From a virus (lineage: Duplodnaviria > Caudoviricetes): a stretch of DNA of 55,347 nucleotides. The notes under the pieces were generated by a model. That model saw only the letters and a program-made list of their open reading frames with translations, did not search any database and had not been told where the DNA came from. Position 1 is the first letter of the stretch; each line of letters opens with the position of its first letter. The translations under genes and the position numbers were made by a program. Positions 1 to 16,320 of this stretch are shown in pieces. The stretch is taken from the IMG/VR virus record IMGVR_UViG_3300046170_000038, positions 1 to 55,347 of that record; one strand, 5' to 3'.

Positions 1-242
1 CACATATACTACGCCACCCCCAGTGGCCCTTGCCCCGCCCGTGTGATCGCCTGTGAAGAAGGTACCCGTGCATTATCTCCCTCGGTTTTTCCACACATCT
101 TTTTTGCCACACCATCATTGCCGCATATGCCTGTTATCATGGGCGATATGGGATAGCGGCAAGTGTTATGAAAACAGTTATGGTGCGATATGTGAAAGCA
201 AACATTCAAATATTAGAATGTGTGAAGCGATGTTGAGCCGAT
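1..242. repeat. Left copy of 242-bp direct terminal repeat
   Basis: 1-242 is identical to 55106-55347; the same 66-aa ORF appears at 9..209 and 55114..55314 (offset 55105). True DTR or assembly overlap. Confidence 0.95.
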
Positions 243-336
243 GCACATTGTCTGCAGACAATACCCCTACTTTACATTGCCATATGTGCAAGCTGCATGT
301 CATATTATATGCATATGCATCTATTATGACTATCTA

Positions 337-412
337 AGGTTGCCGAATCACCCCTAATTAAACAACCTTAATGCATTGTAATACCCCCTACAGGTTGCCG
401 AATCACCCCTAA
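337..412. repeat. 21-bp direct repeat AGGTTGCCGAATCACCCCTAA x2 next to the left terminal repeat
   Basis: Exact copies at 337-357 and 392-412. Confidence 0.9.
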
Positions 413-613
413 CATATCGCCATATAGTTGCGTTATTTGAGTAGGTAAAAGATAGTGCTTTCCAAACAATACACTTTTAAGATGTATTCACTGCCTTTCA
501 ACCCATTGATAACATTACATTTTATTATTTATACAATTAGGGTGTTTACAAAGTCAATTATCTGGATACAATTAGGGCCACAAACAGAAACACAGACACA
601 AAGGATTAAATCA

Positions 614-856
614 ATGTTTAATAAAGTTTTCACATACACATCAGCAGATACCATCGCCGAAACATGGGACGGTGTAAAATATGGTGGCGAACTATATTGT
701 TTTCTTTGGAATGAAATTGTTTCTCAATATCCTAAAAAAACAGACTATGATGGTTATGGCTTTGAGGGTGCAACATCTAACAATGTATCAGATTATTGGG
801 ATATAATCCCTACACATTTACAGAATGAACTAAACAGATTAGCGTTGATTGATTGA
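614..856 (+). CDS. Early hypothetical protein
   Basis: ORF 455..856; start reassigned to ATG 614, which follows AAGGA at 601. Confidence 0.7.
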   Translation: MFNKVFTYTSADTIAETWDGVKYGGELYCFLWNEIVSQYPKKTDYDGYGFEGATSNNVSDYWDIIPTHLQNELNRLALID

Positions 857-927
857 TTTTAACTGGTAAGCATTTACTTGCTTACTTATTAAGACCAAAC
901 TTAACCAAACTGAAAAGGACTAAACCA

Positions 928-1179
928 ATGCAAATCAAAACAACAGTTAAAACGGGTAGAGTTTACAATGGCAATCAAGAAATAGTTATTTCATTGATTG
1001 ATGATGTGGTAACATTTACTGATCAATCAAGAAACATCAATGGCCTATGTCAACTAGATGATATTGATATTGAAATGTTACAAGATGAAACATTGTTTTC
1101 AACTCAGGCAAACAAAGCAAAGTATCTTGAAAATTTCATCATGGCAAAATATGATGCGGGACAATATAAAAACGCTTGA
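928..1179 (+). CDS. Early hypothetical protein
   Basis: ORF 853..1179; ATG 928 follows a GAAAAGGA Shine-Dalgarno. Confidence 0.75.
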   Translation: MQIKTTVKTGRVYNGNQEIVISLIDDVVTFTDQSRNINGLCQLDDIDIEMLQDETLFSTQANKAKYLENFIMAKYDAGQYKNA

Positions 1180-1361
1180 CATTCTTAGATTGCACCATTA
1201 TCAAGATGGTGTAATGTTAGAAAGTCAAACAAAGATAAAACAAGATGCGGTACGCCCATAATGATTTTATCTTGACTTTTCAAAGCTGGTATGGTGCAAG
1301 CTAGTCCATACGTTCTAATTGAGACAAAGTAGAGCCAATTAGAACAAAATAAAATAAAGAC

Positions 1362-1391
1362 TTGACTAAGTTAAACGACTAAGACTAGACT
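1362..1391 (+). promoter_or_regulatory. Putative sigma70 early promoter (one of several CTTGAC sites at 1175, 1271, 1361, 1721)
   Basis: TTGACT-N18-TAGACT in an ORF-free region with an A-rich upstream tract. Confidence 0.5.
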
Positions 1392-1396
1392 GAATA

Positions 1397-1716
1397 CAAG
1401 AAACGGGCAACACGGTGATAATAGCCCACACCACACGTTAAATGAAAAGTAAGAACATTGACTAGGGTAAAGATGCCTAGCACAACTAAAAGGCTCTGGC
1501 TTGTGGATGCAAGCATGTCTAGCAAATGGACGGATTAAGCAACCGTGTAGCGACTAAACACCCGATAGGTACGTGTACCTTTGAGCAAGGGATGCAGCGC
1601 AAAATGTCCCATGAAAAACAGGGCTTGTGAACGGTGACTTGAATCAGTCCGTCTATAGTGCTGGTTAATTGTCTTTTGAGTAATCGCAAGCTGTGCAATT
1701 CTAGGCCAACCTAGAC
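1397..1716 (+). ncRNA. Candidate large structured non-coding RNA, family unknown; ends approximate
   Basis: No credible ORF 1180-1781; six colinearly nested helices plus several local hairpins, many with G-U pairs on the + strand (see findings). Confidence 0.6.
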
Positions 1717-1781
1717 CATGCTTGACATGTGGCATGGCTTGTGATTATCTATAAAGACAACACAAACTGAAAGGTTTCAAT

Positions 1782-2366
1782 ATGTATACTGACAATATCC
1801 TTGCATGTTATATGCAAAGCCTCAACTCTGAGGTATCGCATGGCAAAACATGGTATGCAGACGCAAAGCAAGCTGCACAAGATATGGCAGATAAGTACGA
1901 ACTGCCATTGCATGTTGTTGTGGGTGTCATTGCAGCATTGTCACCAACTAATAACTGGTCACGTAATCTAGTTGATGCAGATAATATGCTAGATACCTTT
2001 GTACTGGGCGGCTATGTGGAAAGTTGCAAGCCTTGTACTTACAAAACAATGCGTGATAAGGCTTGGTCTATTCTGCAGTCTATGCCCCATGATAATGATG
2101 ATGTGGCGTTTATACTCAAAGGCCCAAAGATAACAGACTTTTTCTACTGCATCATGGGCAAGAATGTTTGTGTAGTTGACGGTCACGCTTGGTGCATTGC
2201 CAATGCAGACCGTAGGACTATGCAGGAAGTGCCAAACATTGGCAAAAAACTACGCCTAGAAATACAGCAAGCCTATGCAGACGCTGGTGAACGTGTGGGA
2301 CTTACTGCATACCAGATGCAAGCTGCAACATGGGTGACATGGCGTAGGCTACACGGTGTAAAATAA
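1782..2366 (+). CDS. HhH-GPD DNA-glycosylase-like phage protein (DUF7178-like)
   Basis: Motifs WY, AALSP-x-N-N-W-x-R-N, GPKI, VVDGH and QAATW; strong SD. Confidence 0.6.
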   Translation: MYTDNILACYMQSLNSEVSHGKTWYADAKQAAQDMADKYELPLHVVVGVIAALSPTNNWSRNLVDADNMLDTFVLGGYVESCKPCTYKTMRDKAWSILQSMPHDNDDVAFILKGPKITDFFYCIMGKNVCVVDGHAWCIANADRRTMQEVPNIGKKLRLEIQQAYADAGERVGLTAYQMQAATWVTWRRLHGVK

Positions 2367-2369
2367 TAG

Positions 2370-2398
2370 TTGACAGTACTGATAGGCGGCTATATGCT
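2370..2398 (+). promoter_or_regulatory. Sigma70-type promoter
   Basis: TTGACA-N17-TATGCT, intergenic. Confidence 0.7.
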
Positions 2399-2453
2399 GC
2401 TTATTATACTACCAACTATCTCAACTTAACCCAACTTGAAAAGGAACTACCCC

Positions 2454-2813
2454 ATGACTAATGTAAACACAAAGCCAGTTGTTGCCACATCTAACCCACA
2501 GTTGTATGCAAACCATACTTTCCACATGTCACGTGCGACACCGTTCACTTACAACTACGCAGTAGTTGATGACTACATCCTTGCTAATTACATGACCAAA
2601 AGCCAGCGTCAAATGGCAAAAGACTTGAACGAATACCCAAATCGTATTGCCTATCGTGTGCAAATACTCAAAGCCAATGGCATTATCAGTGTCAAGGCTG
2701 TAGGACGTACTACTGAGGGACGCTTAAAGAAAGAGTACCTGCAGCAGTATGATGCAGCTATCAAGCTGTACAAAGAACTGATGGCGATTAACCCGCAAGC
2801 ATTGGCAGGGTAA
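2454..2813 (+). CDS. Putative HTH DNA-binding protein
   Basis: SQRQMAKDLNEYPNRIAYRVQILK resembles a helix-turn-helix; ATG 2454 after an AAGGA SD. Confidence 0.55.
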   Translation: MTNVNTKPVVATSNPQLYANHTFHMSRATPFTYNYAVVDDYILANYMTKSQRQMAKDLNEYPNRIAYRVQILKANGIISVKAVGRTTEGRLKKEYLQQYDAAIKLYKELMAINPQALAG

Positions 2814-2980
2814 TGATTTATCACTGTACATTCTATACTGGTGTGGGCAAGATACTGCACCAGTATCAAACCAAGTCCTACAGACAAGTTATGTATGATG
2901 CAAAGATTGCTGTACAGTCTGGACTACATGTAAAAGTGTTGCAGAATGGCAACACAATTAAGCTGCCTGAGTTTAAATAG
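2813..2980 (+). CDS. Small hypothetical protein (55 aa, not in ORF track)
   Basis: TAATG-coupled start; MIYHCTFYTG...KLPEFK. Confidence 0.55.
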   Translation: MIYHCTFYTGVGKILHQYQTKSYRQVMYDAKIAVQSGLHVKVLQNGNTIKLPEFK

Positions 2981-3011
2981 ACAGAAAGGTTATCCCAAGT
3001 TATATAAGTAC

Positions 3012-3040
3012 TTGACACCTCCCTATGGTACTTATATAAC
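3012..3040 (+). promoter_or_regulatory. Sigma70-type promoter
   Basis: TTGACA-N17-TATAAC. Confidence 0.7.
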
Positions 3041-3075
3041 TTTGATATAATCTAACTTAACATGGATGAATTGGT

Positions 3076-3252
3076 ATGAACATATACGTAAACGAAAGAT
3101 CAGTGTACGGAAACACAATGGTGTACCCCGCATGTGACAAGGCAAAAGCATTTGCAAATATTGCAGGTACAAAGACCTTAACCTTTGAGACAATACAAGA
3201 GATAAAAAACTTGGGCTATGATGTATGCCTAAACTATAGGGACAAACTGTAA
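3076..3252 (+). CDS. Small hypothetical protein (58 aa, not in ORF track)
   Basis: MNIYVNERSVYGNTMVYPACDKAKAFANIAGTKTLT...; stop coupled (TAATG) to the next gene. Confidence 0.7.
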   Translation: MNIYVNERSVYGNTMVYPACDKAKAFANIAGTKTLTFETIQEIKNLGYDVCLNYRDKL

Positions 3253-3449
3253 TGACTATTATAATAGACAGATGGGACTTGCAAGGTGAACTGGCAAACA
3301 TAATGTGCAAGCTATCAACAAGTGACTTATGTGTACTGGCAGAACATATGCTAGGCACAGGCCACACTTCACTAGGCTATACAATGGTTATGGGTGAAAA
3401 GACTGACGCCATACTGAAAGAAATAAAAAATGAAACAACTAATGATTGA
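3252..3449 (+). CDS. Hypothetical protein
   Basis: Translationally coupled ORF. Confidence 0.6.
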   Translation: MTIIIDRWDLQGELANIMCKLSTSDLCVLAEHMLGTGHTSLGYTMVMGEKTDAILKEIKNETTND

Positions 3450-3559
3450 CAAGCTAATGACCGTAGGCTACTCTGTAATGGTAGTGATAAACACTGTCAC
3501 TGCACTAGCAATAATCTACACCGCAACACATTACTTAACTTAATACAAAGGACAGACCA

Positions 3560-3871
3560 ATGACTGTAGCAGAAATTAAACTGGCACTAATGACCCTTAA
3601 CACCAGTGAATTGACTGATATCAAACAAGCAATGCTTACACTAGACACTGCTGACCTCAATGATATTATTGACTTGGCTCATGAGCTAAAGACCCTCAAG
3701 GGTAGGATTAGCCTCAAGGTAGGTCAGGACGTTTGGGTAGTACAGACGTACATTACGGGAAATACCAAGCGTACTGCTGGTATCGTTGAGAAGATCAACC
3801 AGAAGAAAGCACAGGTGCGTATGCGTGGCTCTATCTACAACGTACCCTTTGCAATGCTTGAGGCAGCATAA
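3560..3871 (+). CDS. Hypothetical protein with C-terminal KOW/SH3-like barrel
   Basis: LKVGQDVWVV...GIVEKINQKKAQV...YNVPFAML; short tandem duplication at the N-terminus; good SD. Confidence 0.6.
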   Translation: MTVAEIKLALMTLNTSELTDIKQAMLTLDTADLNDIIDLAHELKTLKGRISLKVGQDVWVVQTYITGNTKRTAGIVEKINQKKAQVRMRGSIYNVPFAMLEAA

Positions 3872-4026
3872 TGAAACGTAAGGTAGGTATCATTAATCCT
3901 GTGGCAAAGGCTATGCTTCAACAGCGTAAGCCACCACAGGTGGTGCTACCTAAGAAGGGTAACAAGGCCAAGCGTAGTCGTGGCAATGACTTTCGTAAGG
4001 CATTAGCAGAACAAATGGAGAAATAA
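3871..4026 (+). CDS. Small basic protein (51 aa, not in ORF track), weakly ArfA-like
   Basis: MKRKVGIINPVAKAMLQQRKPPQVVLPKKGNKAKRSR...; TAATG-coupled. Confidence 0.6.
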   Translation: MKRKVGIINPVAKAMLQQRKPPQVVLPKKGNKAKRSRGNDFRKALAEQMEK

Positions 4027-4029
4027 ATT

Positions 4030-4293
4030 ATGACAGATACACCGAAAACACCAGAGGAATGGGAACAATTACGTAAGGATCGTCACCAAGCAAACCTTGA
4101 TGCCTTCAATGCTTTGCAGGAAGATCAACAGGTAGCAATTAGACATGCGTTCAAGGCTTTGTCTGCAGCACAGGATACTTTATCTGAGTGTCAAGACCTG
4201 TGGCTATCTGACATCAAGGAACTAGACCGTGCCTACTGGCAAATGCGTCACAGCTTTATGGCTGTTGTTGATCCAGAGAATGCAAGCCTATGA
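4030..4293 (+). CDS. Hypothetical protein
   Basis: GGAG SD; packed in operon. Confidence 0.75.
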   Translation: MTDTPKTPEEWEQLRKDRHQANLDAFNALQEDQQVAIRHAFKALSAAQDTLSECQDLWLSDIKELDRAYWQMRHSFMAVVDPENASL

Positions 4294-4529
4294 GTTATTT
4301 GAAGGCATATACTGTTACGCTTGACATAGATGGTGAGTACAAGCTAGTCAGACTAGATGATACCTTTCCATCTGTATCAAGTGCAGTAACAGCTATCAAC
4401 ACAGCCATGTTACTTGTACAGGTTAAACAACCTGCATCTGTAATAAATCTGGTAGACTGTACTGAGTATGTGCCTTCAGCATTTGAGGGTATCAAGTATG
4501 CCTACCCAATACCAGAGGTAATGCAATGA
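4290..4529 (+). CDS. Hypothetical protein
   Basis: ATGA overlap with the upstream gene. Confidence 0.7.
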   Translation: MSYLKAYTVTLDIDGEYKLVRLDDTFPSVSSAVTAINTAMLLVQVKQPASVINLVDCTEYVPSAFEGIKYAYPIPEVMQ

Positions 4530-4711
4530 ATACAGATGATGACTTTGCCCTGACTGTCAAACCTAAACGACAGGTAAAGGGTACATACACTGGTATGTGT
4601 GGTGGTGTATTAGCTATTGAGTATGCCACAGACACATGGTTTTTAGAACAGGATGAACTGGAACATGACACAGATACGCAAGCGCATGGCCCGTCTGATG
4701 CAGCCTATTGA
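4526..4711 (+). CDS. Hypothetical protein
   Basis: ATGA overlap; GAGG SD. Confidence 0.5.
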   Translation: MNTDDDFALTVKPKRQVKGTYTGMCGGVLAIEYATDTWFLEQDELEHDTDTQAHGPSDAAY

Positions 4712-4856
4712 CAGGCAGATAATGATGTGCGATGATCGTGAAGAAACCATGATGCTTGCATGTGCTATGCTTCAGTCCTGCATCACCATACTGGACGCCA
4801 GCATAGGTACACAGGGACGCAAAGAAATAATAACTGACGCCAACAAAAAGGATTAA
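4653..4856 (+). CDS. Hypothetical protein
   Basis: Fills the operon; LMQPIDRQIMMCDDREETMMLACAML. Confidence 0.65.
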   Translation: MNWNMTQIRKRMARLMQPIDRQIMMCDDREETMMLACAMLQSCITILDASIGTQGRKEIITDANKKD

Positions 4857-4861
4857 GTTCT

Positions 4862-5056
4862 ATGCCTAACAATATGATAATTCAAATGCCTAGTGGCATG
4901 AGACTGTCTATCACACAAGGTGTAGGCATGATGGGTGACAGAGACAGAGGCTCTATTGAGGTAGGTGTGCTTGATGACAAGGGCAACCTGATAGGTGATC
5001 CACGTGGCTATGTGGATGGCTCACAATTACACCAGATACTAGAGGGGATGCTGTAA
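4862..5056 (+). CDS. Hypothetical protein
   Basis: Stop coupled to the next gene (TAATG). Confidence 0.65.
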   Translation: MPNNMIIQMPSGMRLSITQGVGMMGDRDRGSIEVGVLDDKGNLIGDPRGYVDGSQLHQILEGML

Positions 5057-5463
5057 TGGTACTTACTGCCCTGTCCTGCATTGCATTGAACGTATACTTT
5101 GAGGCACGTAGTGACAACATGTCTGGACAGTATGCCGTGGCTCATGTTGTACTCAACAGGGTACAGGATAGCCGCTGGCCTAATGAGGTATGCGAAGTAG
5201 TCACACAACGTAATGATAACAACGTCTGCCAATTCAGTTGGTACTGTGATGGTAAAGCTGACAAGCCTGATGATGAATATGCTTGGGCATATGCTCAGAT
5301 GGTGGCGGCAGATGTACTACGTGGCGAAGTCCCTGACTTTACTGGTGGATCAACCCACTATCATGCGTACTATGTCAAGCCCTATTGGGCTGACAAGATG
5401 CTATACCAAGGAGACTTTGGCTCTCATTATTTCTTTAGAGAAATAGATGGGCTGAACAGATAA
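5056..5463 (+). CDS. Cell wall hydrolase, SleB/Hydrolase_2 family
   Basis: CIALNVYFEAR, AVAHVVLNRV, CQFSW, GSTHYHA, PYWA and HYFF motifs. Confidence 0.92.
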   Translation: MVLTALSCIALNVYFEARSDNMSGQYAVAHVVLNRVQDSRWPNEVCEVVTQRNDNNVCQFSWYCDGKADKPDDEYAWAYAQMVAADVLRGEVPDFTGGSTHYHAYYVKPYWADKMLYQGDFGSHYFFREIDGLNR

Positions 5464-5466
5464 CAC

Positions 5467-5495
5467 TTGCTATCTTTACTAGTATAGGTTATGAT
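5467..5495 (+). promoter_or_regulatory. Sigma70-type promoter for the DUF932-integrase operon
   Basis: TTGCTA-N17-TATGAT, intergenic. Confidence 0.6.
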
Positions 5496-5541
5496 AGCTA
5501 TACAACAAGGGCATAGTTGCCCACAACATAAGGAACAGACA

Positions 5542-6375
5542 ATGGCTTTAGATTTTATTCCAGAGAACCTTGACTTCGCAGTAGCGTTTGAGGACACAAA
5601 AATGCACGACAAAAAGTATGTGCTTAATGCAGACACTGGCAAGTACATGGGTATTGTTGGTCAAGGCTTTCAGTGTGCCAGCCACGGTGATTTCTTCCGA
5701 GGTGTATGGGACACAGTGACAGAGGAAATGTCACCTAATGAGTTAGCAGATGCAGACTTTACATGGCATACTGCTAGAGGTGGGGCATGGGCAATGCTTG
5801 ATGTTACCTTACCCAACATGCGTAGTACCATAACTACAGACAAGCATGAGACTAGCATTGGCAATCGTATCATTAGTCTGCATGGCATTGATGGATCATG
5901 CAGCAATCAATCTTACTTTGGTGCTATTGATTACTTCTGTAAAAACGGAATGATCAGTGGTGACTATGACAAAATCCGTAAGAAGAACACAGCCAACTTT
6001 ACCCTTGAGGGTTTCATCTATGAGTTGGCACGTGCAAGGGCTAGTTTCTATGACAACGCTGCAAAGATGCAGGTGTGGGCTAACACCTCAACTAAATATG
6101 TAGATGTTAAGTCTTTGCTTGATGATATGATTTCATCTAAGCGTAAAGCAGAGAAAATGTTTCAGTTGTATAGCCATGAGGCCAGTGTACGTGGGCATAA
6201 CAAGTTCTCTTTGTACTCTGCCTTCACCAACTATGCCAGCTATGCTGATGAACGTAATGGGTTCAGCCTCAAGAATACTGGCAATGATACACAGGCAGTC
6301 AGCATGTGGTCACGTGAGCAAGAGGTGAGCAAGTGGGTCAGTGATCCTAAGTTCATCACATTGGAAGCTGCATAA
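5542..6375 (+). CDS. DUF932-family protein
   Basis: GIVGQGFQCASH, HGIDGS, DYFCKNGM and LYSAFTNYAS pattern; ATG 5542 after AAGGAA. Confidence 0.75.
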   Translation: MALDFIPENLDFAVAFEDTKMHDKKYVLNADTGKYMGIVGQGFQCASHGDFFRGVWDTVTEEMSPNELADADFTWHTARGGAWAMLDVTLPNMRSTITTDKHETSIGNRIISLHGIDGSCSNQSYFGAIDYFCKNGMISGDYDKIRKKNTANFTLEGFIYELARARASFYDNAAKMQVWANTSTKYVDVKSLLDDMISSKRKAEKMFQLYSHEASVRGHNKFSLYSAFTNYASYADERNGFSLKNTGNDTQAVSMWSREQEVSKWVSDPKFITLEAA

Positions 6376-7499
6376 TGACTAAGTTGCCACGATATGTACA
6401 GCCACGTAAACAACCCAAGGGTGTAGTGTCTTATCGCTTCAACCCACCTCAGTCTCTTGTTGATGCTGGGGTGGTGAGCCGCAAGGAATGGGGTACTGAT
6501 CTTAAACAGGTTAAGGTACTCGCCAAAGAGTTGAATGACTTAGTTGACAAGTACCGTGAAGAACAGGCATTGATATTCAATGTTAAGCCAAGCAGCACTG
6601 TTGCAAATTTGTCACAGTATTACTTTGCCTCTAATGATTTCAAGGCGTTACGTAATACAACTAAGGTACATTACAGGTACTTCATTGGTCTACTGGACAA
6701 TGCCATAGGTCACATGAGGCATGGTGATGTTACCTCTAAGGTTGCAAAGCATTTGTATGAACAGTGGGTTGAGCAAGGCATTAGCTTTGCCAATCATGGT
6801 GCTACCTGTGCCAGCCGTGTCTTTAACTACGCCATTGAAATGGAACAGATTAACACTAATCCTTTCACCAACATTAAGCGTAAGGCTACACCACAACGTA
6901 AGGTAGTATGGGAACATGCTGATGTGACTAACTTTATGGACACCGCCTTCAGTAAGTACAAGTACCGTAACGTGGGCATGATCGTGGCTATGGCCTATCA
7001 GTGGTGTCAAAGACTAGGTGACATGCGTATGCTTACGTGGGATGCCCTTGACTTAGACAGGCAGCGCATGTACCTTGAACAGTCTAAGCGTAGGGCAGAG
7101 GTGTTCCTACCCATTGATGATCAGTTACATGTAATGCTCAAGGAACAGCATGAGGACTACGGCTTTCAGCCTTATGTTGCACCCCACCCTACACCTGTAG
7201 GTGGTACGTTCAAACCCTATGGCATGGAAAGACTATCTAAAGTAGGACGTAGGGTAATGCGAGAGGCTGAGTTACCAGAAAGCCTACGCCTTATGGACTT
7301 ACGTAGGACAGGGGTAACACAAATGGTTGAGGCAGGTGTACCATTGCCACAGTTGATGGCTGTTACTGGTCACACACATGTTGCATCTGTGAAACCATAC
7401 ATAAAAAATACATTCGCCTCTGCTAATAAAGCCTTGACAGCACGTAATGCTCATGTAGAATTGAGTGTAACGAAGAACATTGAAAGTGATTGGCTATGA
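6375..7499 (+). CDS. int: Tyrosine recombinase/integrase
   Basis: CQRLGD (Arg), QSKR (Lys), DLRRT, TGH and KPY catalytic motifs. Confidence 0.9.
   Translation: MTKLPRYVQPRKQPKGVVSYRFNPPQSLVDAGVVSRKEWGTDLKQVKVLAKELNDLVDKYREEQALIFNVKPSSTVANLSQYYFASNDFKALRNTTKVHYRYFIGLLDNAIGHMRHGDVTSKVAKHLYEQWVEQGISFANHGATCASRVFNYAIEMEQINTNPFTNIKRKATPQRKVVWEHADVTNFMDTAFSKYKYRNVGMIVAMAYQWCQRLGDMRMLTWDALDLDRQRMYLEQSKRRAEVFLPIDDQLHVMLKEQHEDYGFQPYVAPHPTPVGGTFKPYGMERLSKVGRRVMREAELPESLRLMDLRRTGVTQMVEAGVPLPQLMAVTGHTHVASVKPYIKNTFASANKALTARNAHVELSVTKNIESDWL
7434..7461 (+). promoter_or_regulatory. Putative promoter for primase/helicase inside the 3' end of int
   Basis: TTGACA-N16-TAGAAT. Confidence 0.55.
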
Positions 7500-8302
7500 A
7501 CATAATAGAAATTATAAATGACTTACAGCTAAGTGTTGGTGACAGTAAACGTATGGCATGTCCAGTGTGTCATGCTAAGAATACATTTACTATTACTAAT
7601 ACTATGGGTAAGATTGTTTGGAATTGTTACAAGGCTAGTTGTACTGTCAGCGGCGGTACAAATGTGGCACTATCTGTTGGTGATGTTCGTAAGGCACTTG
7701 GTTATATGACTGACGAGCTAGACCCTTCCCCATTTGTAAAGCCTGACTACCTAGTTAATGATGGGCCTGAGTGTTGGGATTTTCTTAAACAGTATGGCCT
7801 ATCATCTGAAGATGTTATTGTATTGTATGACGTAAAGGATCACCGTATAGTCTTTCCTGTGCTAGATGACAGAGGTTGTATAGTTGATGGATCAGGTAGA
7901 TCACTGGGAAAAAGAATACCTAAATGGAAAAGATATGGTAATAGTGACTTGCCATACCATTGTGGATGTGGTAATGTCGCTGTAGTGGTAGAGGACAGCG
8001 TGAGTGCTGCAGTTGTAGGTGCGACAGTGAACAACGATCTAAAGCTGGATGCCAAAGATGATGATGTATATGTCGGGGTGGCTGTGTTGGGTACATCATT
8101 ATCAGAGGGACACAAGCGGTACTTGTCGCAGTTCTCTACCATAATAGTAGCACTTGACCCCGATGCTTTACCCAAGTCACTCAAGTTCGCTAAAGAATTA
8201 CGCACGTACTGTTCAGATGTACGTGTTTTAAAGTTGACAGACGATTTAAAGTATAGTAACCCTGACGATATAAGTAATCTGATAACCCTAACACAAGGAT
8301 AG
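7496..8302 (+). CDS. DNA primase (Zn-ribbon plus TOPRIM)
   Basis: CPVC...CYKASC zinc finger; VVVED, LGT and ALDPDA TOPRIM motifs. Confidence 0.9.
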   Translation: MNIIEIINDLQLSVGDSKRMACPVCHAKNTFTITNTMGKIVWNCYKASCTVSGGTNVALSVGDVRKALGYMTDELDPSPFVKPDYLVNDGPECWDFLKQYGLSSEDVIVLYDVKDHRIVFPVLDDRGCIVDGSGRSLGKRIPKWKRYGNSDLPYHCGCGNVAVVVEDSVSAAVVGATVNNDLKLDAKDDDVYVGVAVLGTSLSEGHKRYLSQFSTIIVALDPDALPKSLKFAKELRTYCSDVRVLKLTDDLKYSNPDDISNLITLTQG

Positions 8303-8309
8303 ACCCCAC

Positions 8310-9533
8310 ATGGAACTAGCACTAATACGCAGCCTGATGAACAAAGAGTTTTATGACAGTCATCGTGGCTCTCGTTGTCCAGAACGATTGTTCAGCCCTG
8401 ATGTACGCAAGATTAAGAAGGCCATTGACAGTGCAATGCACCGTTATGAGCGTACCGTTACACCTGACGAGATTGAGGCGTTGTTTATGTCCAACAATGC
8501 TACCCTGACAACAGCACAGAAGACTGCCTATAGTGCGCTGTTCGCTACAGTAAAGCGAGAACAGCCTATGGGTGAGGACATTGCACAAGAGGTGCTATCC
8601 AAGCTGTTCCAACAGGTGATTGGTGAGGACATTGCTAACCTTGGCTTTGATTATGTCAATGGTACAAAGGATACCCTTGAGCCACTACGTAATATGCTTG
8701 AGCAATATGGTGATGACTTCACGCCCAAGCTAAACATTGAATGGGAAGACACAAGCATTGATCATATCCTTGCACTCAACAGTCTTGAGAGCCAGTGGAC
8801 ATTCAACATCCCTACACTTACCCGTAAGGTTGAGGGTGTTAATGCTGGTCACTTGATTGAGATTGGTGCTAGGCCCAACACTGGCAAGACTTCATTCCAT
8901 GCCAGCCTGATTGCTGGTGAGAATGGCTTTGCATGGCAGGGTGCTAAGTGCATTGTGTTATGTAACGAGGAAGGCTATCACCGTGTAGCACACCGCTACA
9001 TCACTGCCGCCTCTAACATGGAAGCCAAAGAGGTTGTAGCCAACAAGTCAAAGGCAATGGCTGCATACGATAAGATCAGGGATAACGTCAAGTTCAAGGA
9101 CGCTACTGATCGTGACATGTCATGGGTTGAGAGTGTCTGTAAGACATACAAGCCTGACATTGTGGTGCTTGACATGGGTGACAAGTTCGCCAAGACTTCT
9201 GGCTACTCTCGCCCTGATGAAGCACTAAAGGCTAACGCTATCTATGCTAGACAGATTGCAAAGCAACATGGCTGCGCTATCTTCTACATGTCTCAGCTAT
9301 CTGCTGATGCAGAGAACAAGGTGGTACTCAACCAATCCATGATGGAAGGTAGTCGTACAGGTAAGGCTGCAGAGGCAGACCTAATGCTGTTGATTGCAAA
9401 GAATCCACCTGTTGAGGGACAGGACGAAGAGGACACCATGCGTCACCTCAATGTTGTCAAGAACAAACTGTCTGGTTGGCATGGTATTGTACATACCAAT
9501 CTGAACTACAAGACAGCGAGGTACGAGGCATGA
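8310..9533 (+). CDS. DnaB/T7 gp4-like SF4 replicative helicase
   Basis: Walker A GARPNTGKTS, VVLD, MSQL, EADL, VKNK. Confidence 0.93.
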   Translation: MELALIRSLMNKEFYDSHRGSRCPERLFSPDVRKIKKAIDSAMHRYERTVTPDEIEALFMSNNATLTTAQKTAYSALFATVKREQPMGEDIAQEVLSKLFQQVIGEDIANLGFDYVNGTKDTLEPLRNMLEQYGDDFTPKLNIEWEDTSIDHILALNSLESQWTFNIPTLTRKVEGVNAGHLIEIGARPNTGKTSFHASLIAGENGFAWQGAKCIVLCNEEGYHRVAHRYITAASNMEAKEVVANKSKAMAAYDKIRDNVKFKDATDRDMSWVESVCKTYKPDIVVLDMGDKFAKTSGYSRPDEALKANAIYARQIAKQHGCAIFYMSQLSADAENKVVLNQSMMEGSRTGKAAEADLMLLIAKNPPVEGQDEEDTMRHLNVVKNKLSGWHGIVHTNLNYKTARYEA

Positions 9534-9703
9534 TAAATAGAGACACACACAGAGAGTTATGTGAAAAGTATGAGGCGGTAAAACGTGACGCAAAGTATTG
9601 GGAAGCACAAGCTAAGACATTACGTACACGTAACGTACATTTACTAGAAGATGTAGAAAGACTGTCTGCACAATTAAGGTTATGGAAAGGTACAGCACCG
9701 TGA
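9530..9703 (+). CDS. Small coiled-coil hypothetical protein
   Basis: ATGA overlap with the helicase stop; GAGG SD. Confidence 0.6.
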   Translation: MINRDTHRELCEKYEAVKRDAKYWEAQAKTLRTRNVHLLEDVERLSAQLRLWKGTAP

Positions 9704-10131
9704 ATAACTATGTATATACAGCCATTGGACTTGTGGTATTTTACATTGGCCTTAAGATGTTTAGTGGTGGTATGAAATCTATGGGTAACATAGACCACTT
9801 GACTTGGTTCTTGGGCAACCCAATCTATATGTTCTTTGGGTCAATCGCTATGACACTGGCATGGCAGAGTAGTAGCCTTAGTACTACAGCAATCATTGCT
9901 TTGGTTGCATCAGGTGTACTACCCTTACCTGCTGCTGTGGCTGCTGTATTAGGGGCTAACATAGGTACAACAGGGACTATCTGGTTGGCAGGGCTGCTAG
10001 TGTCTGACGGTATGCCAAGGGGTGACACACTACGCATAGCCATGATACACACTGGCGTTAATCTTTTGATGGCGATAAGTCTATTGCCATTTGTAAATCA
10101 CATAGCTAAGTATGTTGGGAGAGTAGGGTGA
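9700..10131 (+). CDS. Single-repeat Na+/Pi cotransporter family membrane protein (NptA/SLC34-like)
   Basis: WQSSSLSTT and GANIGTT signatures, RIAMIHTGVN helix; hydrophobic throughout; GTG start at 9700 inferred from the GTGA overlap and SD. Confidence 0.85.
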   Translation: MNNYVYTAIGLVVFYIGLKMFSGGMKSMGNIDHLTWFLGNPIYMFFGSIAMTLAWQSSSLSTTAIIALVASGVLPLPAAVAAVLGANIGTTGTIWLAGLLVSDGMPRGDTLRIAMIHTGVNLLMAISLLPFVNHIAKYVGRVG

Positions 10132-10227
10132 ATGATGAGGAATAAGTCTGTAGTTTATTACTCACAAGTTACGCTGCAACGTAACTATTTAACTTTTACG
10201 CCATAGCGTAAAGAAAAGGACAGGAAA

Positions 10228-10545
10228 ATGAGACAGCACATATACGACACGTGGACACTAATCATGGACTCGGACAGAAGCCCCCTAAAGAATATACCTG
10301 ACAACAATGCCCGACACTTAATCTTGCAGATACTTGCATGGATGTGGTGTATTGTGTTTAGTATTTTCTTGGGCAGCTATCTTGTGTTTGGGTTGACAGC
10401 GATAGCTCATGTGTTACTACTGGCTGCAATAGCTGTGACTGTCGGTACGTTTGATACTGCTAACAGGAACCCAAAGACGTTATCTGATTTTGCCATGCGT
10501 CTTGATGGGTACAATGGTAGACGTAACAACGGAGAGCATGATTAA
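10228..10545 (+). CDS. Small membrane protein, function unknown
   Basis: PLKNIPD...ILQILAWMWCIVF...AIAH; two hydrophobic segments; AGGA SD. Confidence 0.8.
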   Translation: MRQHIYDTWTLIMDSDRSPLKNIPDNNARHLILQILAWMWCIVFSIFLGSYLVFGLTAIAHVLLLAAIAVTVGTFDTANRNPKTLSDFAMRLDGYNGRRNNGEHD

Positions 10546-10601
10546 ATTATGACTAAGAAAGATAATCGGATATAATCGGATATAATTGGAGTGGATAAAG
10601 A

Positions 10602-11276
10602 ATGTCACAGATTGAAGTAACATACATAGACCACATGGGTAGTGACCTGAGTGTAGTCAATGCAGCACGTGTATCCTTTGGTAAGAAGAGTGAGGCACTA
10701 GGTACATCAGGTGTAGAGGGTGAGCATATGACACCCATACTACATGATACAGACAAGAGACTAATTAAGTACCTAGCCAAGCATAAACACATGTCACCAT
10801 TTGGTCATGCCTTTTCCAGCTTCCATGTCAAGGCTCCTATCTTTGTAGCTAGGCAACTGGTCAAGCATAAGTTCCTACGATGGAATGAGATTAGTCGTAG
10901 GTATGTAGATGATGAGCCTGAGTTCTATGAGCCTGATGAATGGAGAGACAAGAGTGCAGATAAAAAGCAGGGTAGTGGAGGTAAAAGTCAGTCTCAATAC
11001 TTCCCTAACATCTATGTCAAAGAGGTATCAGACAAGGCACTAGGTGACTATAAAAAGATGTTGGTTCAAGGCATCTGTCCAGAGCAAGCACGTATGGTGT
11101 TGCCACAAAGCACCATGACTGAATGGTATTGGTCAGGTAGTCTTGACGCCTTCTCTGACATGTGTATACTAAGATGTAAAGAAGATACACAGTTTGAAAC
11201 AAGAATAGTTGCAAATGAAATATCTGCTTGTATGAAAGACCTGTTTCCTATAGCATGGGGAGCATTGACCGTTTGA
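10602..11276 (+). CDS. thyX: FAD-dependent thymidylate synthase
   Basis: VNAARVSF, HMSPF, APIFVARQ, NEISRRY and EQARMVLP motifs. Confidence 0.95.
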   Translation: MSQIEVTYIDHMGSDLSVVNAARVSFGKKSEALGTSGVEGEHMTPILHDTDKRLIKYLAKHKHMSPFGHAFSSFHVKAPIFVARQLVKHKFLRWNEISRRYVDDEPEFYEPDEWRDKSADKKQGSGGKSQSQYFPNIYVKEVSDKALGDYKKMLVQGICPEQARMVLPQSTMTEWYWSGSLDAFSDMCILRCKEDTQFETRIVANEISACMKDLFPIAWGALTV

Positions 11277-11291
11277 TAGGATACCCGACAC

Positions 11292-13331
11292 ATGATACTG
11301 ACACTAGACGTAGAGAATACAACGACAACACGTGATGGCAAGCTGCACCTTGATCCATTTGAGAAAGACAATTCATTGACACAGGTAGGTACACTGGATC
11401 AATCAGGTAACGAACACATCTTTACCTTTGACCATTCAGAAAAGCAGGGTACACAATTTGATCACCAATGTGTGCAGTCAATGCTTGACAAGACTACTGT
11501 ACTGGTTGCACACAATGCTGTACATGACTTGCTGTGGTTATGGGAGTCAGGCTTTACATATGATGGTAAGGTGTTTGACACCATGCTTGGTGAGTATATC
11601 TTACAGCGTGGGCAGAAGCAACCCCTATCCCTTGATGCATGTGCAGAGCGTTACGCATTAGACACACAGAAGCAGGATACACTCAAAGAGTATTTCAAGA
11701 AGGGCTACACCACACGTGACATACCCTTGGCTGAGTTGACAGAGTATTTGTCCCATGACCTACATGCTACACAGCAGTTGTACAATACAATCACTGCCAA
11801 GCTAGATGGTACTACCCTGCAGGACAGTGTTGATCTGACTAACCAACTTGCTATACACCTTGCTAAGATTTATCAGCGTGGCTTCAAGGTTGATACAGAT
11901 GCACTAGAGGCAGTACGTAAAGAGTACGAGGATGAACGTGACGAGTTAGTGCGTAGTCTTGAGGCACATACACATGAGTTGATGGGTGACAGACCTGTGA
12001 ACCTTAACAGTCCAGAGCAACTTGCATGGGTTGTGTATGGTCGTAAGCCTGATGACAAAAAGGTGTGGCCTACATTGTTTGAGGGACGTATGGTAGATGC
12101 TAAGTTCAAGTCTACCGTTACCAAGCACTCAACCAAGTTGTACAAACAGAAGGCAAAACAATGCAAGTCCTGCTACGGTAGTGGGCAAATCAGGAAGGTA
12201 AAGAAAGATGGAACTCCTTTTGCAAGACCCAACAGGTGTGTCGGGTGTGATGGTTGTGGGTATACTTTTGTGGATACTAACCAGTTAGCTGGCCTACAAT
12301 TCACTGCACCGACTGCCAAGTTCATCAGTGCCAATGGTTTCAGTACAGGCAAGGACAGCCTGACATACCTTGAGGGTGTGGCTAGAGCCAAGCAGATGCC
12401 AGAGGCAGTCAAGTTTCTACAGAACATGAAGCGTCTGAATGCCATTGAGGTATACATTGCCAGCTTCATTGGTGGTATTGCTACCCACACCAAGGCAGAC
12501 GGTAAGCTACATGCCCGTCTACTGCAGCACAGGACAGGTACAGGCAGACTATCAGGTGCTGACCCTAACATGCAGAACATGCCACGTGGCGGTACATTCC
12601 CTGTCAAGCGTGTGTTTGTATCACGATGGGATGGTGGACAGATTATGGAAGCTGACTTTGCACAGCTAGAGTTTCGTGTCGCTGCATTTCTGTCTCAAGA
12701 CATGGTTGCCATTGACGAGGTTATCACTGGCTTTGATGTACATGCCTACACTGCCAAGACCATCACAGATGCTGGTCAACCTACAGCTAGGCAAGCTGCC
12801 AAGGAACATACCTTTGCTCCACTGTTCGGTGCTACTGGGTATGGACGTACACCAGCAGAGGCTGCATACTACACAAAGTTCATGGACAAGTACAAAGGTA
12901 TTGCTGCATGGCACAAGAGACTAGCCGACGAGGTACTGGCTACTGGCTGCATTACCACACCATCAGGCAGGGCATTTGCTTTCCCTGATGCTACCCGTAA
13001 CAAACATGGAGGTGTGACATATTTCACACAGATAAAAAATTATCCGGTGCAATCCTTTGCAACGGCTGACATTGTACCTATATGTCTGATATACATAGAC
13101 AAGATGTTGGAGGCAAACAAGATGCAGAGTTGTATAGTCAACACCGTACATGACAGTGTGGTACTTGACATACACCCTGATGAAACAGACAAGGTACTCA
13201 AGATCATAGACAGAACAAACGACAGGCTGATATCCATTGTCAATAAGAAATGGAATATAGACTTCAACATTCCTCTATTATTAGAGGCAAAGATTGGCCC
13301 GAATTGGCTTGACACCAAAGACGTAGCATGA
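11292..13331 (+). CDS. polA: Family A DNA polymerase with 3'-5' exonuclease and inserted DnaJ-type zinc finger
   Basis: Exo motifs LDVE and HNAVHD; CKSCYGSG...CVGCDGCG insert; TGRLS, ADFAQLEFR, motif B KEHTF and VHDS. Confidence 0.95.
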   Translation: MILTLDVENTTTTRDGKLHLDPFEKDNSLTQVGTLDQSGNEHIFTFDHSEKQGTQFDHQCVQSMLDKTTVLVAHNAVHDLLWLWESGFTYDGKVFDTMLGEYILQRGQKQPLSLDACAERYALDTQKQDTLKEYFKKGYTTRDIPLAELTEYLSHDLHATQQLYNTITAKLDGTTLQDSVDLTNQLAIHLAKIYQRGFKVDTDALEAVRKEYEDERDELVRSLEAHTHELMGDRPVNLNSPEQLAWVVYGRKPDDKKVWPTLFEGRMVDAKFKSTVTKHSTKLYKQKAKQCKSCYGSGQIRKVKKDGTPFARPNRCVGCDGCGYTFVDTNQLAGLQFTAPTAKFISANGFSTGKDSLTYLEGVARAKQMPEAVKFLQNMKRLNAIEVYIASFIGGIATHTKADGKLHARLLQHRTGTGRLSGADPNMQNMPRGGTFPVKRVFVSRWDGGQIMEADFAQLEFRVAAFLSQDMVAIDEVITGFDVHAYTAKTITDAGQPTARQAAKEHTFAPLFGATGYGRTPAEAAYYTKFMDKYKGIAAWHKRLADEVLATGCITTPSGRAFAFPDATRNKHGGVTYFTQIKNYPVQSFATADIVPICLIYIDKMLEANKMQSCIVNTVHDSVVLDIHPDETDKVLKIIDRTNDRLISIVNKKWNIDFNIPLLLEAKIGPNWLDTKDVA

Positions 13332-13337
13332 TATAAC
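13309..13337 (+). promoter_or_regulatory. Sigma70-type promoter for the SSB operon
   Basis: TTGACA-N17-TATAAC(TAC). Confidence 0.7.
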
Positions 13338-13372
13338 TACAAAATTCGCTCAGTGTTAAGGAGAACATACAC

Positions 13373-14266
13373 ATGACAAATCAAGTAACAACGATTGATA
13401 CAAACAACTACGCAGCTATGGCTAAGGCTATGGGCATGGGTGACACAGCAGGAGAAAAGAAAACCAGTGCGCTTGCCCGTCTGCGTATCAACCACACACC
13501 TGTCATGGGACAGGCAGAGGTTAAAGGCAAGCAGGTAAATGTAGAGGTAGTGGAGGGTGGTACATACAAGCTAGAGATACCTGATGGGCCTACATACTTT
13601 GCAGAGAAGGTAAAGATTCGCCCATTCCTACAGCGTTTCATGTACAAAAAGTTTGTCATGGGCAGTGACACTACACCTAATCGTTATGTCAAGACTGTTA
13701 TGGGTGACAACCTAAACTCAGATATGAAGGACAATGACGGTGGCTTCAACTGTGGTAAACCTTCTGGTTGGATTGAAGACTTCAACAGTCTGCCTGACAG
13801 CATGAAAGAGTTGATCCGTTCTATCAAACGTGTGCGTGTACTCTTTGGTACTGTGGACATGGTGAACAGTACAGATGCACAGGGTAATCCTGTTGAAGCA
13901 CCTAGTACACCATTCATCTATGAGGTTGAGAACCGTGATGCCTTTAAGATTATTGGTAATGTCTTTACTAAGTTGGGTAAGATGCAACGCCTTCCACCAC
14001 AGCATTACATTGACTGTGCTACAGAGAAGCGTGACCTACCCAATGGTAGTTGTTTCTATCTGCCTACCGCAGACTTAGACCTCATGTCTACACTGGACAT
14101 GGACAATGATACACAGGCTACCTTTGCTGACTTCATTGCATGGATTGCTAACTACAATCAGTATATCCTTGGGGAATGGGGAGACAAAATGCAGCATGAC
14201 AATGAGGAAATACCAGATGCCATTGTAGAGGACTTGGTAGACATTGATGAAGATGCGTTTGCATAA
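13373..14266 (+). CDS. Probable single-stranded DNA-binding/annealing protein
   Basis: Lies after polA; acidic C-terminal tail ending DEDAFA; strong SD. Function inferred. Confidence 0.55.
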   Translation: MTNQVTTIDTNNYAAMAKAMGMGDTAGEKKTSALARLRINHTPVMGQAEVKGKQVNVEVVEGGTYKLEIPDGPTYFAEKVKIRPFLQRFMYKKFVMGSDTTPNRYVKTVMGDNLNSDMKDNDGGFNCGKPSGWIEDFNSLPDSMKELIRSIKRVRVLFGTVDMVNSTDAQGNPVEAPSTPFIYEVENRDAFKIIGNVFTKLGKMQRLPPQHYIDCATEKRDLPNGSCFYLPTADLDLMSTLDMDNDTQATFADFIAWIANYNQYILGEWGDKMQHDNEEIPDAIVEDLVDIDEDAFA

Positions 14267-15054: not shown

Positions 15055-15281
15055 TGTTCAATGAAGAAGAAATCAAAGATATGGAAGAGGCCATTGCCAC
15101 TATGGAAGATGACCTTAGCCAAGCCAAGGCAGACCTAAAGAAAAAGAAGTACGGTGCTTTACGTGAAGCTATTAATGCACGTAATGAAATGGATAAGGTA
15201 GTGCAGGAAGAGTTGACCAAGCTAAACCTGACACATAATCCTTGGACTGTACAGCCAAGCCGACACCTTTTCTGGCGGTGA
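15054..15281 (+). CDS. Coiled-coil hypothetical protein
   Basis: TAATG-coupled; GGAG SD. Confidence 0.7.
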   Translation: MFNEEEIKDMEEAIATMEDDLSQAKADLKKKKYGALREAINARNEMDKVVQEELTKLNLTHNPWTVQPSRHLFWR

Positions 15282-16069: not shown

Positions 16070-16320
16070 TGGCTAAATGGAAAGAGTTACCAGCAGATGT
16101 AGTCAATCATCCCCCACAGTACAATTCGGGGGGGATTGAGTGCATTGATGCAATGAAGGCAATGTCAGAGGGATCATATGTAGAGCCACACCATGCCTAC
16201 TGTTGGCAGAATGCCTTCAAGTACATATGGCGTTGGCCTTACAAGAACGGTGTAGAGGACTTGCGTAAAGCAAGGTGGTACATTGACCGATTAATACATG
16301 AGTTAGAAAATGAAAGCTAG
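16069..16320 (+). CDS. DUF3310 / T7 gp1.7-like nucleotide kinase
   Basis: DVVNHPPQY, IECIDA, NAFKYIWR and KNGVEDLRKARWY. Confidence 0.88.
   Translation: MAKWKELPADVVNHPPQYNSGGIECIDAMKAMSEGSYVEPHHAYCWQNAFKYIWRWPYKNGVEDLRKARWYIDRLIHELENES

Follow-up and report, generated by a model that had tools for sequence, protein, structure and literature searches.

A conserved structured RNA at the start of the early transcript of an HMO-2011-type marine phage, with a possible role as a cis-acting leader

The put RNAs of phage HK022 are about 70 nucleotides (nt) long, fold into two stem-loops, and make RNA polymerase resistant to terminators in cis without protein factors. In the N leader of phage lambda, the nutL site with its boxA and boxB elements is followed by a large, RNase III-sensitive hairpin that precedes the N start, and the early leader of phage T7 carries an RNase III site upstream of gene 0.3. 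Phages of the HMO-2011 type, whose hosts are SAR116 and Roseobacter RCA bacteria, are among the most abundant marine phage types. Here we describe a structured RNA encoded near the left end of IMG/VR record IMGVR_UViG_3300046170_000038, hereafter called the window, which is a complete virus record of 55,347 base pairs (bp) with the gene content of an HMO-2011-type podovirus. The RNA spans approximately nucleotides 1398 to 1760 of the + strand (about 360 nt), beginning just past a promoter and stopping 10 nt 5′ of the ribosome-binding site of the first well-supported gene. That a conserved, structured RNA is encoded on the + strand at this position is, in our assessment, virtually certain. We read it as the structured 5′ leader of the left-end early unit, acting in cis on the early transcript, and assign this full statement a probability of roughly 0.4.

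The locus resembles put in that a structured element would be present in the nascent early transcript just past the promoter of a phage that apparently depends on host RNA polymerase, and in that the element precedes a long operon and shares its strand, the operon here comprising genes to about 20 kilobases (kb). The two differ in that the RNA described here, at about 360 nt, is predicted to form 12 to 14 helices, a pseudoknot, and a three-way junction, which sets it apart from the put RNAs as described above. Large, ornate phage-associated RNAs that are both complex and conserved, namely GOLLD and ROOL, are treated in PMC12286853; the present RNA is not matched by their Rfam models, is shorter, and occupies a fixed position between promoter and first gene. 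A 2023 catalogue compiled from IMG/VR (Fremin et al., PMC10690425) contains 10,006 unnamed candidate RNAs, which likewise are covarying motifs in uncultured phage contigs, some of them located upstream of genes.

The existence of the RNA is established by comparison of related loci. Homologues of the gene at 1782 led us to 43 IMG/VR loci, whose upstream regions were compared by blastn and MAFFT, and these regions share a patchy but clear conserved block in which compensatory changes are visible. Application of RNAalifold to six sequences predicted 37 base pairs, with both nucleotides changed in 19 of them. We then used a covariance model (R1) built on six sequences, for which candidates were supplied by two motif scans of viral contigs and filtered with nhmmer. 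The pattern TTGAGCAAGGG followed by a 20- to 50-nt gap and GAACGG matched 118 stretches of viral contigs, mostly by chance, and only matches confirmed by nhmmer were retained. Model R1 describes 68 distinct homologues, including 25 that score 78 to 189 bits and 19 that score 36 to 70 bits, and the window itself scores 161 bits at 1521 to 1701.

In the alignment fitted to model R1, 89.9% of cells are paired, compared to 34 to 43% when partners are slid out of register, and 29 of 37 pairs exhibit double changes. None of 500 shuffles reached the observed pairing or the observed covariation score. Because a model-fitted alignment leans to the structure of its model, we counted again on 66 longer sequences aligned by MAFFT alone, using a structure written from the window. 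The signal persists in this alignment, wherein 82.8% of cells are paired (29 to 49% for slid partners) and 39 of 53 pairs are double-changed. A motif scan of metagenome contigs yielded at least 120 further loci, and among 214 anchored loci from IMG/VR and marine metagenome contigs there are at least 128 distinct versions of the 200-nt core. The RNA is present in one copy per genome and always has the same orientation as the early genes; no second copy was found at the right genome end. The covariation observed across homologues therefore strongly bears out an earlier proposal, made from the window alone in a first-pass annotation, that a large, early, structured noncoding RNA resides in this region.

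The same annotation assigned the RNA to the + strand on the basis of its G-U pairs, and this assignment is also upheld. In the 5′ domain there are 69 G-U pairs compared to 11 A-C pairs, and in two helices of the 3′ domain (S2 and H1) the respective counts are 197 and 3, as determined on structures that had both been derived on the assumption of a + strand RNA. These data bear on an explanation in which the region holds only DNA-level elements, such as a promoter cluster, operators, an origin, or a packaging signal, and no functional RNA. Several TTGAC boxes and a long palindrome do occur nearby, and the region adjoins a genome end. However, its stems stay paired while their sequences change, whereas a protein operator would conserve sequence rather than complementarity, and the excess of G-U pairs, which would read as A-C on the opposite strand, is not symmetric with respect to the DNA duplex. 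A purely DNA-level function is thus very improbable.

A protein-coding explanation was rejected as well. The RNA occupies a 602-bp stretch (1180 to 1781) between an open reading frame (ORF) at 853 to 1179 and the gene at 1782, and this gap, originally noted as ORF-free, is devoid of ORFs longer than 67 amino acids. No frame within it is kept as a protein, including one of 34 amino acids on the + strand and overlapping frames of 59 and 66 amino acids on the − strand. Matches obtained by tblastn are partial and are equal in two overlapping frames, which argues for conservation at the nucleotide level, and the long open frames of the − strand exist because that strand is poor in A. Portions of 1268 to 1767 are represented in contigs that three studies assembled from RNA libraries. 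These contigs, which fall within 1268 to 1977 and were picked with the window stretch, are compatible with transcription of the RNA but do not prove it, since carry-over of DNA is possible and such contigs are blind to transcript ends, strand, and level; gaps in their coverage carry no information.

Downstream of the RNA, the + strand from about 1.8 to 20 kb encodes an integrase, primase, helicase, family-A DNA polymerase, ThyX, and ribonucleotide reductase, and terminase, portal, and virion genes occupy the − strand from 55 down to 20 kb. The group of HMO-2011-type phages, its integrase, and its genome layout are described in PMC6918029. No RNA-polymerase PHROG was recognized among the 23 window proteins scanned, and a search of the window for PF00940 was without match, although the control of that search was also silent and its result thus constitutes absence of evidence. 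The first well-supported gene (1782 to 2366, + strand) encodes a 194-amino acid protein of the DUF7178/phrog_3842 family that shares 60% identity with its homologue in Roseobacter phage CRP-13. Translation would begin at the ATG at 1782 to 1784, which is preceded by the ribosome-binding site AAAGG at 1770 to 1774.

The promoter from which the RNA would be made consists of a −35 element (TTGACT, 1362–1367), an 18-nt spacer, and a −10 element (TAGACT, 1386–1391), and we infer that transcription starts near nucleotide 1398. A promoter-like site had been suggested at 1362 on inspection of the window; it is detected by our promoter scan and recurs in relatives, as does the larger promoter block AAGACTTGACTA ... 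AGACTGAATACA. Among the homologues that have at least 120 nt of upstream sequence, 46 of 62 carry TTGACN, a 16- to 18-nt spacer, and NANANT within 200 nt upstream. The −10 element of these 46 is AAGACT, CAGACT, or TAGACT in 45 cases and CATAAT in one, and it ends 27 to 159 nt 5′ of the RNA core. Within the sub-lineage of the window, the promoter block and the GAAUACA that follows are nearly identical. Several relatives (for example, L328, L299, L256, and L298) also possess tandem units of about 13 nt, each containing AGAC(C/T/A)GAATA or AAGACTAAA, that precede and overlap the −35 box, and related copies are present in the window at 1380 to 1396. These units may be regulator sites or an UP-like element.

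A second promoter-like site had been proposed at 1722, but its reading as a separate promoter is not supported. The TTGACA at 1722 to 1727 forms the loop and 3′ arm of H2, a covarying hairpin located inside stem S2, and is replaced by UUCAAG in one lineage. The hexamer located 17 nt 3′ of it lies in the variable strand of S2 and is unconserved, and no promoter was called there by the scan. The TTGACA of H2 could nevertheless double as a −35 box.

The most conserved element of the RNA is P6 (1624–1658), which comprises outer pairs 1624–1625 with 1657–1658 and a stem formed by 1629–1630 with 1652–1653 and by 1632–1634 with 1649–1651, and which includes a bulged A (A1631) and a 14-nt loop (1635–1648). 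Five of its pairs never vary among the 66 sequences, and pairing in the MAFFT alignment extends to 92.2% of its cells. The loop carries one of two discrete 7-nt block alleles, of the GACUUGA type in 35 of the 66 sequences and of the AAAAUAC type in the other 31, and no intermediates occur. Either allele is found with either architecture of the neighboring P3/P4 domain, and no alignment column elsewhere varies in step with the allele (mutual information reaches at most 0.62 bits, and this value follows lineage). Because P6 is kept in every architecture of the RNA while its loop switches as a block, it is probably read by a trans-acting partner. Sites complementary to the P6 loop are as frequent in the phage as expected by chance (2 versus 2.0), and one of the two is the loop itself. 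The GACUUGA-type allele (1636–1646) resembles the −35 region of the promoter, GACTTGAC (1358–1369), and shares CUUGA with the loop of H2, a likeness that the other allele lacks.

The remainder of the 5′ domain, like all elements described here, lies on the + strand. Hairpin P0 (1499–1503 with 1510–1514) displays the conserved loop UGGAU, is paired in 92.7% of cells, and has changes on both sides at 5 of 5 pairs in the 66-sequence MAFFT alignment. Hairpin P1 (1530–1533 with 1543–1546), whose loop includes an invariant UAA, is 95.1% paired with 4 of 4 pairs compensated in the same alignment, and 93.6% paired in the model-fitted alignment. Nucleotides of the P1 loop also participate in a 2-bp pseudoknot (PK), wherein GC at 1522–1523 pairs with GC at 1539–1540. 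PK is paired in all 66 sequences, and its pair types vary: one pair is C-G in 56 sequences and G-C in 10, and the other is C-G in 40, U-A in 15, and A-U in 11.

P2 (1550–1552 with 1598–1600) encloses P3 (1561–1563 with 1589–1591) and hairpin P4 (1567–1571 with 1576–1580), and hairpin P5 (1608–1610 with 1621–1623) separates this domain from P6. In the model-fitted alignment, P2 is 99.3% paired with 3 of 3 pairs compensated, P3 is 100% paired, P4 is 86.1% paired with 6 of 7 pairs compensated, and P5 is 97.6% paired with 3 of 3 pairs compensated. The value for P5 is 66.9% in the MAFFT alignment, where this region is poorly aligned. A local hairpin (P7/P8; helices 7 and 8 of model R1), at first read as one arm of a switch that is discussed below, was dropped. 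Its helix 7 is only 76% paired, and the swap test described below lends the switch no support. Two additional hairpins precede P0 and are confined to the sub-lineage of the window. Pa (GGGC 1405–1408 with GCCC 1424–1427) would be the first structure of the transcript and, in an informal tally of 12 relatives, is unchanged in seven, compensated to GGGU/ACCC in L351, and represented by another 5′ hairpin in four. Pb (CUAGG 1462–1466 with CCUAG 1476–1480) corresponds to a side hairpin previously noted at 1462 to 1480 and remains plausible, because one relative (L314) has changed both of its sides to give CUUGG/CCAAG, although it too is sub-lineage-specific.

In the 3′ domain, S1 and S2 together make up a stem of about 20 bp, which ends in a three-way junction bearing hairpins H1 and H2. 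The outer stem S1 (UUGUCUUU at 1669–1676 with AAAGACAA at 1753–1760; 8 bp in the window) uses as its 5′ strand the U-rich tract at 1669 to 1677, which was also considered as a boxA-like candidate, and it forms when the window and most of 22 relatives are folded to minimum energy. Because the register of S1 shifts between lineages, this stem was tested by swapping its strands among loci. Cognate strands pair with a mean energy of −7.1 kcal/mol compared to −4.2 kcal/mol for non-cognate strands, and 41 of 44 cognates beat the non-cognate mean. The inner stem S2 (1681–1691 with 1737–1747) is 97.2% paired with 9 of 11 pairs compensated in the MAFFT alignment, and in the swap test all 44 cognates beat the non-cognate mean (−5.7 kcal/mol, compared to a cognate mean of −15.4 kcal/mol). 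Taken together, S1, an internal loop, and S2 (at least 11 bp) amount to approximately two turns of irregular duplex between the promoter and the first gene.

Hairpin H1 (1701–1705 with 1710–1714) retains a conserved GGCCAACC core, and 5 of its 5 pairs are compensated among 54 sequences. It is only 36.5% paired in the MAFFT alignment because the row of the window is misaligned there by one column. Hairpin H2 (1717–1720 with 1726–1729; loop CUUGA) is 89.7% paired in that alignment, with 3 of 4 pairs compensated, and its stem occurs as AUAUG/CAUAU, UGUG/CACA, CGUG/CACG, and UUGC/GCAA. Applied to the 54 sequences, RNAalifold again predicted S2 and H1, and 17 of the 19 pairs involved are compensated. 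The conserved fold leaves the ribosome-binding site unpaired, as judged from the minimum-energy folds of the window and its relatives.

A different architecture had been proposed in the first-pass annotation, in which six nested, colinear, long-range helices join nucleotides 1480 to 1546 with 1631 to 1696. These six helices, like every other helix listed in that annotation, are complementary in the window, and most of this nest reappears as the minimum-energy fold when 1495 to 1765 is folded alone. However, the helices are unconserved across the 66 homologues, wherein 55.5% of cells are paired (29 to 39% for slid controls) and individual helices range from 31 to 71%, as exemplified by 1480–1484/1692–1696 (31%), 1519–1524/1659–1664 (35%), and 1527–1534/1648–1655 (54%). 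The 19 compensated pairs fall below the shuffle mean of 21.8, and some pairs are broken in most sequences (for instance, only 6 of 66 sequences pair columns 69/242, and 17 of 66 pair columns 73/239). In the nest, each arm of P1 is joined to the opposite arm of P6, 5′ with 3′ and 3′ with 5′. Such cross-pairing is possible in the window because both stems read ACGG/CCGU there, and it breaks in relatives because P1 varies (UCCG/CGGA, CCAG/CUGG, GCCA/UGGC, and others) while P6 is fixed. The nucleotides concerned form P1, PK, and P6 instead, which are 92 to 100% paired. As a structure for the family the nested fold is contradicted, and we give it hardly any credence, although it could be an alternative conformer in the lineage of the window, where P1 and P6 share their stem sequence.

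Three smaller hairpins from that initial model, at 1499 to 1514, 1567 to 1580, and 1700 to 1715, are the same as P0, P4, and H1 and are supported by homologues, whereas a fourth, at 1589 to 1610, is only 36% paired across the 66 sequences. The region originally delimited (1397–1716) starts correctly at about the site of transcription initiation and stops 44 nt short of the end of S1. When this region is folded, its z-score is +0.24 for the + strand and +0.07 for the − strand, values typical of shuffled sequence that are obtained because the borders were wrong. By the energy criterion set in the first-pass annotation, the RNA would have been rejected on these borders. With other borders the z-score becomes −3.98 (1495–1765) or −6.23 (1662–1765), with 0 of 200 shuffles folding as well. 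Single-sequence folding had delivered a plausible but incorrect fold, and the z-score hinged wholly on where the borders were drawn.

Both domains are remodeled among relatives. The P3/P4 domain inside P2 is swapped for other hairpins in 29 of the 66 sequences, and one of these replacements carries an invariant 12-nt loop. The 3′ domain exists in at least three forms: the three-way junction described above, another long stem (the L300 group), and a hairpin followed by a promoter-like site (the L001 group). Reduced leaders, which we call group 3, retain the P6 module alone, positioned inside a closing helix and directly in the 5′ untranslated region (UTR), and behind the module a long hairpin extends to the ribosome-binding site. 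In, for example, L029 (745–830), L025, and L030 to L034, the apical part of this group 3 hairpin includes a CCUCC(C) run. Being complementary to the AAGGAG located just downstream, this run could be an anti-Shine-Dalgarno element.

We considered whether this pattern of variation might reflect a riboswitch. In that case the 5′ domain would bind, as an aptamer, some metabolite, ion, or signal of the host, and early-gene expression would be set by the variable 3′ part acting as the expression platform. The size and complexity of the 5′ domain, with its several helices, pseudoknot, and conserved unpaired nucleotides, are aptamer-like. Furthermore, a covarying domain in a 5′ UTR beside a ribosome-binding site, followed by a part that varies by lineage as platforms do, suits such a device. 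However, a switch between two pairings of 3′ domain segments, a:b and b:c, was tried and rejected: the a:e (S1) and b:c (S2) pairings are supported by the swap test, whereas a:b, the only candidate alternative pairing, is no better than swapped (−5.1 versus −4.6 kcal/mol for cognate and swapped strands; 23 of 44 better). The conserved fold does not sequester the ribosome-binding site, the domain enclosed by P2 is the one replaced wholesale in the 29 sequences noted above, and the most conserved part is a two-allele hairpin loop rather than a junction. Moreover, different genes follow the RNA in different phages, and no riboswitch model in Rfam matches it. These characteristics make a riboswitch quite unlikely.

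A search of the whole window against the 4,227 models of Rfam 15, including those for tRNA-like RNAs, 6S RNA, RNase P, tmRNA, riboswitches, ribozymes, GOLLD, ROOL, and marine metagenome motifs, returned no match at gathering score. A permissive scan of 1100 to 1850 gave chance matches only (E of 0.28 to 1.2; 15 to 21 bits compared to thresholds of 50 to 91), which fall outside the RNA or bear no relation to it, and a scan of 10 homologous loci produced no match at E up to 1. ARAGORN found no tRNA or tmRNA gene in the window. The original impression that the RNA belongs to no known class is consistent with these results. They also speak to a self-cleaving ribozyme, for which a compact pseudoknotted fold in a phage would be a fitting setting. 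Ribozyme families of Rfam are unmatched even in the permissive scans, however, and the junction core of known classes is absent from the fold, such that we regard self-cleavage as very doubtful.

No description of this RNA was found in the literature on HMO-2011 phages and noncoding RNA. The supplementary tables of PMC10690425 list neither the 25-nt string of P6 nor the identifiers of seven member contigs; the alignments of that catalogue may include the RNA as an unnamed candidate. Judging from these sequence comparisons, the RNA is an uncatalogued family that is new for structural and regulatory study.

All occurrences of the RNA found are in uncultured viral contigs and marine metagenome contigs. 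With regard to cellular or prophage copies, two of its conserved motifs have no exact match in the genomes of 185,579 prokaryote species, a search that diverged copies would escape. A blastn search of 50,697 phage records, with three versions of the RNA as queries, was without match.

What follows the RNA is also informative. At least seven unrelated first genes were found behind the same leader, and a start codon preceded by a Shine-Dalgarno sequence lies 24 to 45 nt after S2 in 48 of 54 homologues (87 nt in one; not found in five). The fact that the leader is kept while the following gene changes suggests that its role is probably exerted at the level of the transcript or operon, or on a target in trans, rather than on one protein. 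We favor the first of these possibilities, and consider that a cis-acting early leader of some kind stands at slightly better than even odds. Under the leader reading, host RNA polymerase would transcribe the RNA from the promoter at 1362 to 1391, and the leader would act in cis on the fate of the early transcript, during or right after its synthesis. P6 would be the docking site for a trans-acting factor, which might be host polymerase in the act of elongation, one of the elongation factors of the host, or a protein of the phage. The likeliest outcome would be control of elongation or antitermination over the ~18-kb + strand operon, in the manner of nut or put, in a phage without a recognized polymerase of its own. 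This particular outcome is tentative, and on its own we hold it to be doubtful. The long 3′ stem would be a double-strand-specific processing or stabilizing element that separates the leader from the message and presents the ribosome-binding site, as in the early leaders of lambda N and T7. With its two turns of irregular duplex just 5′ of the ribosome-binding site, it resembles the processing hairpins of podoviruses and lambdoid phages.

The order of parts in the lambda N leader, in which a promoter is followed by a small factor-binding hairpin and then by a long stem at the ribosome-binding site, is echoed by the arrangement of P6 and S1/S2. P6 nevertheless does not match a nut site, because its 14-nt loop and bulged A contrast with the 5-nt loop of boxB, and no N-like protein domain is present in the 14 + strand ORFs scanned (455–11276). 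The RNA differs further in that its first gene is unconserved and its 5′ domain is far more elaborate. The T7 early leader, from a related podovirus layout, is similar in having a left-end position, host-type promoters, an irregular stem of about 20 bp, and a first early gene, whereas the large conserved 5′ domain and the three-way-junction cap that are predicted from sequence here distinguish the two.

Several observations weigh against the leader reading. The number of terminator-like sites in 1 to 20000 is 15 compared to 13.7 expected, so there is no excess for an antiterminator to override, and none of the 14 + strand ORFs has an antiterminator-like or RNA-binding Pfam domain. In L001, L290, and L314, which belong to the lineage nearest to the window, a strong hairpin comes after the 5′ domain, with a z-score of −3.8 in one of the three and −2.0 in another, and next in order are TTGACT, 17 nt, and TATGGT. 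This arrangement, as well as the TTGACA of H2, fits a separate RNA gene as well as it fits a leader. Finally, a model search with filters off of about 2.5 kb from each of the cultured relatives CRP-13, CRP-1, and CRP-207 gave a best score of 5 bits, and the upstream region of CRP-13 looks unrelated to the RNA when inspected by eye; a search of these whole records was also empty, but an empty answer there is uninformative. Given that these three phages are without a match to the RNA and without a recognized polymerase, the RNA is not indispensable for this type of genome.

Some of the same data could be accommodated by a processed or stand-alone early RNA that acts in trans, whether by occupying a host protein or defense system in the manner of a decoy or sponge, or as a regulator of host RNAs. 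Such an RNA would be the first product of infection, made from its own strong promoter in quantity and protected at its 3′ end by the long stem, and expression of the first gene would rely on a proximal promoter or on processing. The conserved promoter of the RNA is in keeping with this view, as are the hairpin and promoter-like site of the L001 group, the conservation of TTGACA in H2, the variable downstream gene, and the discrete P6 loop alleles, which look like specificity determinants. However, S1 has no U-tract terminator behind it, and the position of the −10 element for the proximal promoter falls in the covarying strand of S2 and is unconserved. The close spacing between S2 and the start codon of the adjoining gene, the group 3 leaders, in which the P6 module resides in an uninterrupted 5′ UTR, and the chance-level count of sites complementary to the P6 loop likewise disfavor it. 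We consider a trans-acting RNA possible but unlikely. A specific candidate of this kind, a CsrA/RsmA-type sponge, was rejected because each RNA carries 5.33 GGA motifs on average versus 4.83 expected, and none of 66 sequences has a z-score above 2.

A basic protein encoded nearby was also evaluated as a partner of the RNA. The ORF at 3871 to 4026 encodes a very basic, Lys/Arg-rich early protein of 51 amino acids that is conserved in several relatives and in CRP-1. This protein was set aside as an RNA-binding partner, since CRP-1 is a phage without a match to the RNA.

Other features of the left end deserve mention. The window bears an exact direct terminal repeat of 242 bp (1–242 and 55106–55347), the first 200 bases of which are about 50% G+C, compared to about 31 to 37% in the next kilobase. 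Two + strand ORFs that precede the gap (455–856 and 853–1179; 133 and 108 amino acids) lack homologues in related loci and match neither PHROG nor Pfam families. It is possible that they are not genes, in which case the non-coding stretch at the left end would extend to about 1.5 kb. A near-perfect palindrome with arms of about 24 bp (1175–1229) starts at the stop codon of the second of these ORFs and includes a TTGACA. It gave a chance microRNA-like match to Rfam on both strands in the permissive scan and could be a terminator, an operator, or a processing hairpin. Farther downstream, the ORF at 9682 to 10131 encodes 149 amino acids with a match to the Na+/Pi-cotransporter domain family (PF02690; E of 1.7e-14) and may be a phosphate-related auxiliary gene. 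In four relatives (L316, L098, L360, and L266), an inserted segment located about 30 to 130 nt past the leader has an end that resembles the T-arm and 3′ acceptor strand of a tRNA, although ARAGORN detects no tRNA in these segments. The insert may represent the core of an attP site, given that integration of a related phage into a tRNA-Met gene is described in PMC6918029.

A structured RNA at the exact start of the early transcript provides a testable handle on the first minutes of infection by phages that apparently lack their own RNA polymerase. The boldest form of the leader reading is that this RNA represents a second class of RNAs, after put and unrelated to it, that reprogram host RNA polymerase, whereby the leader, via P6, would load onto the very polymerase that makes it or recruit a factor to it. 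We regard this proposal as speculative and unlikely. If it were true, a processive polymerase would transcribe the whole 18-kb early arm of a T7-like podovirus that lacks a polymerase of its own, and the leader would perhaps also help to draw in that arm. The two alleles of the P6 loop would then correspond to two host or factor specificities.

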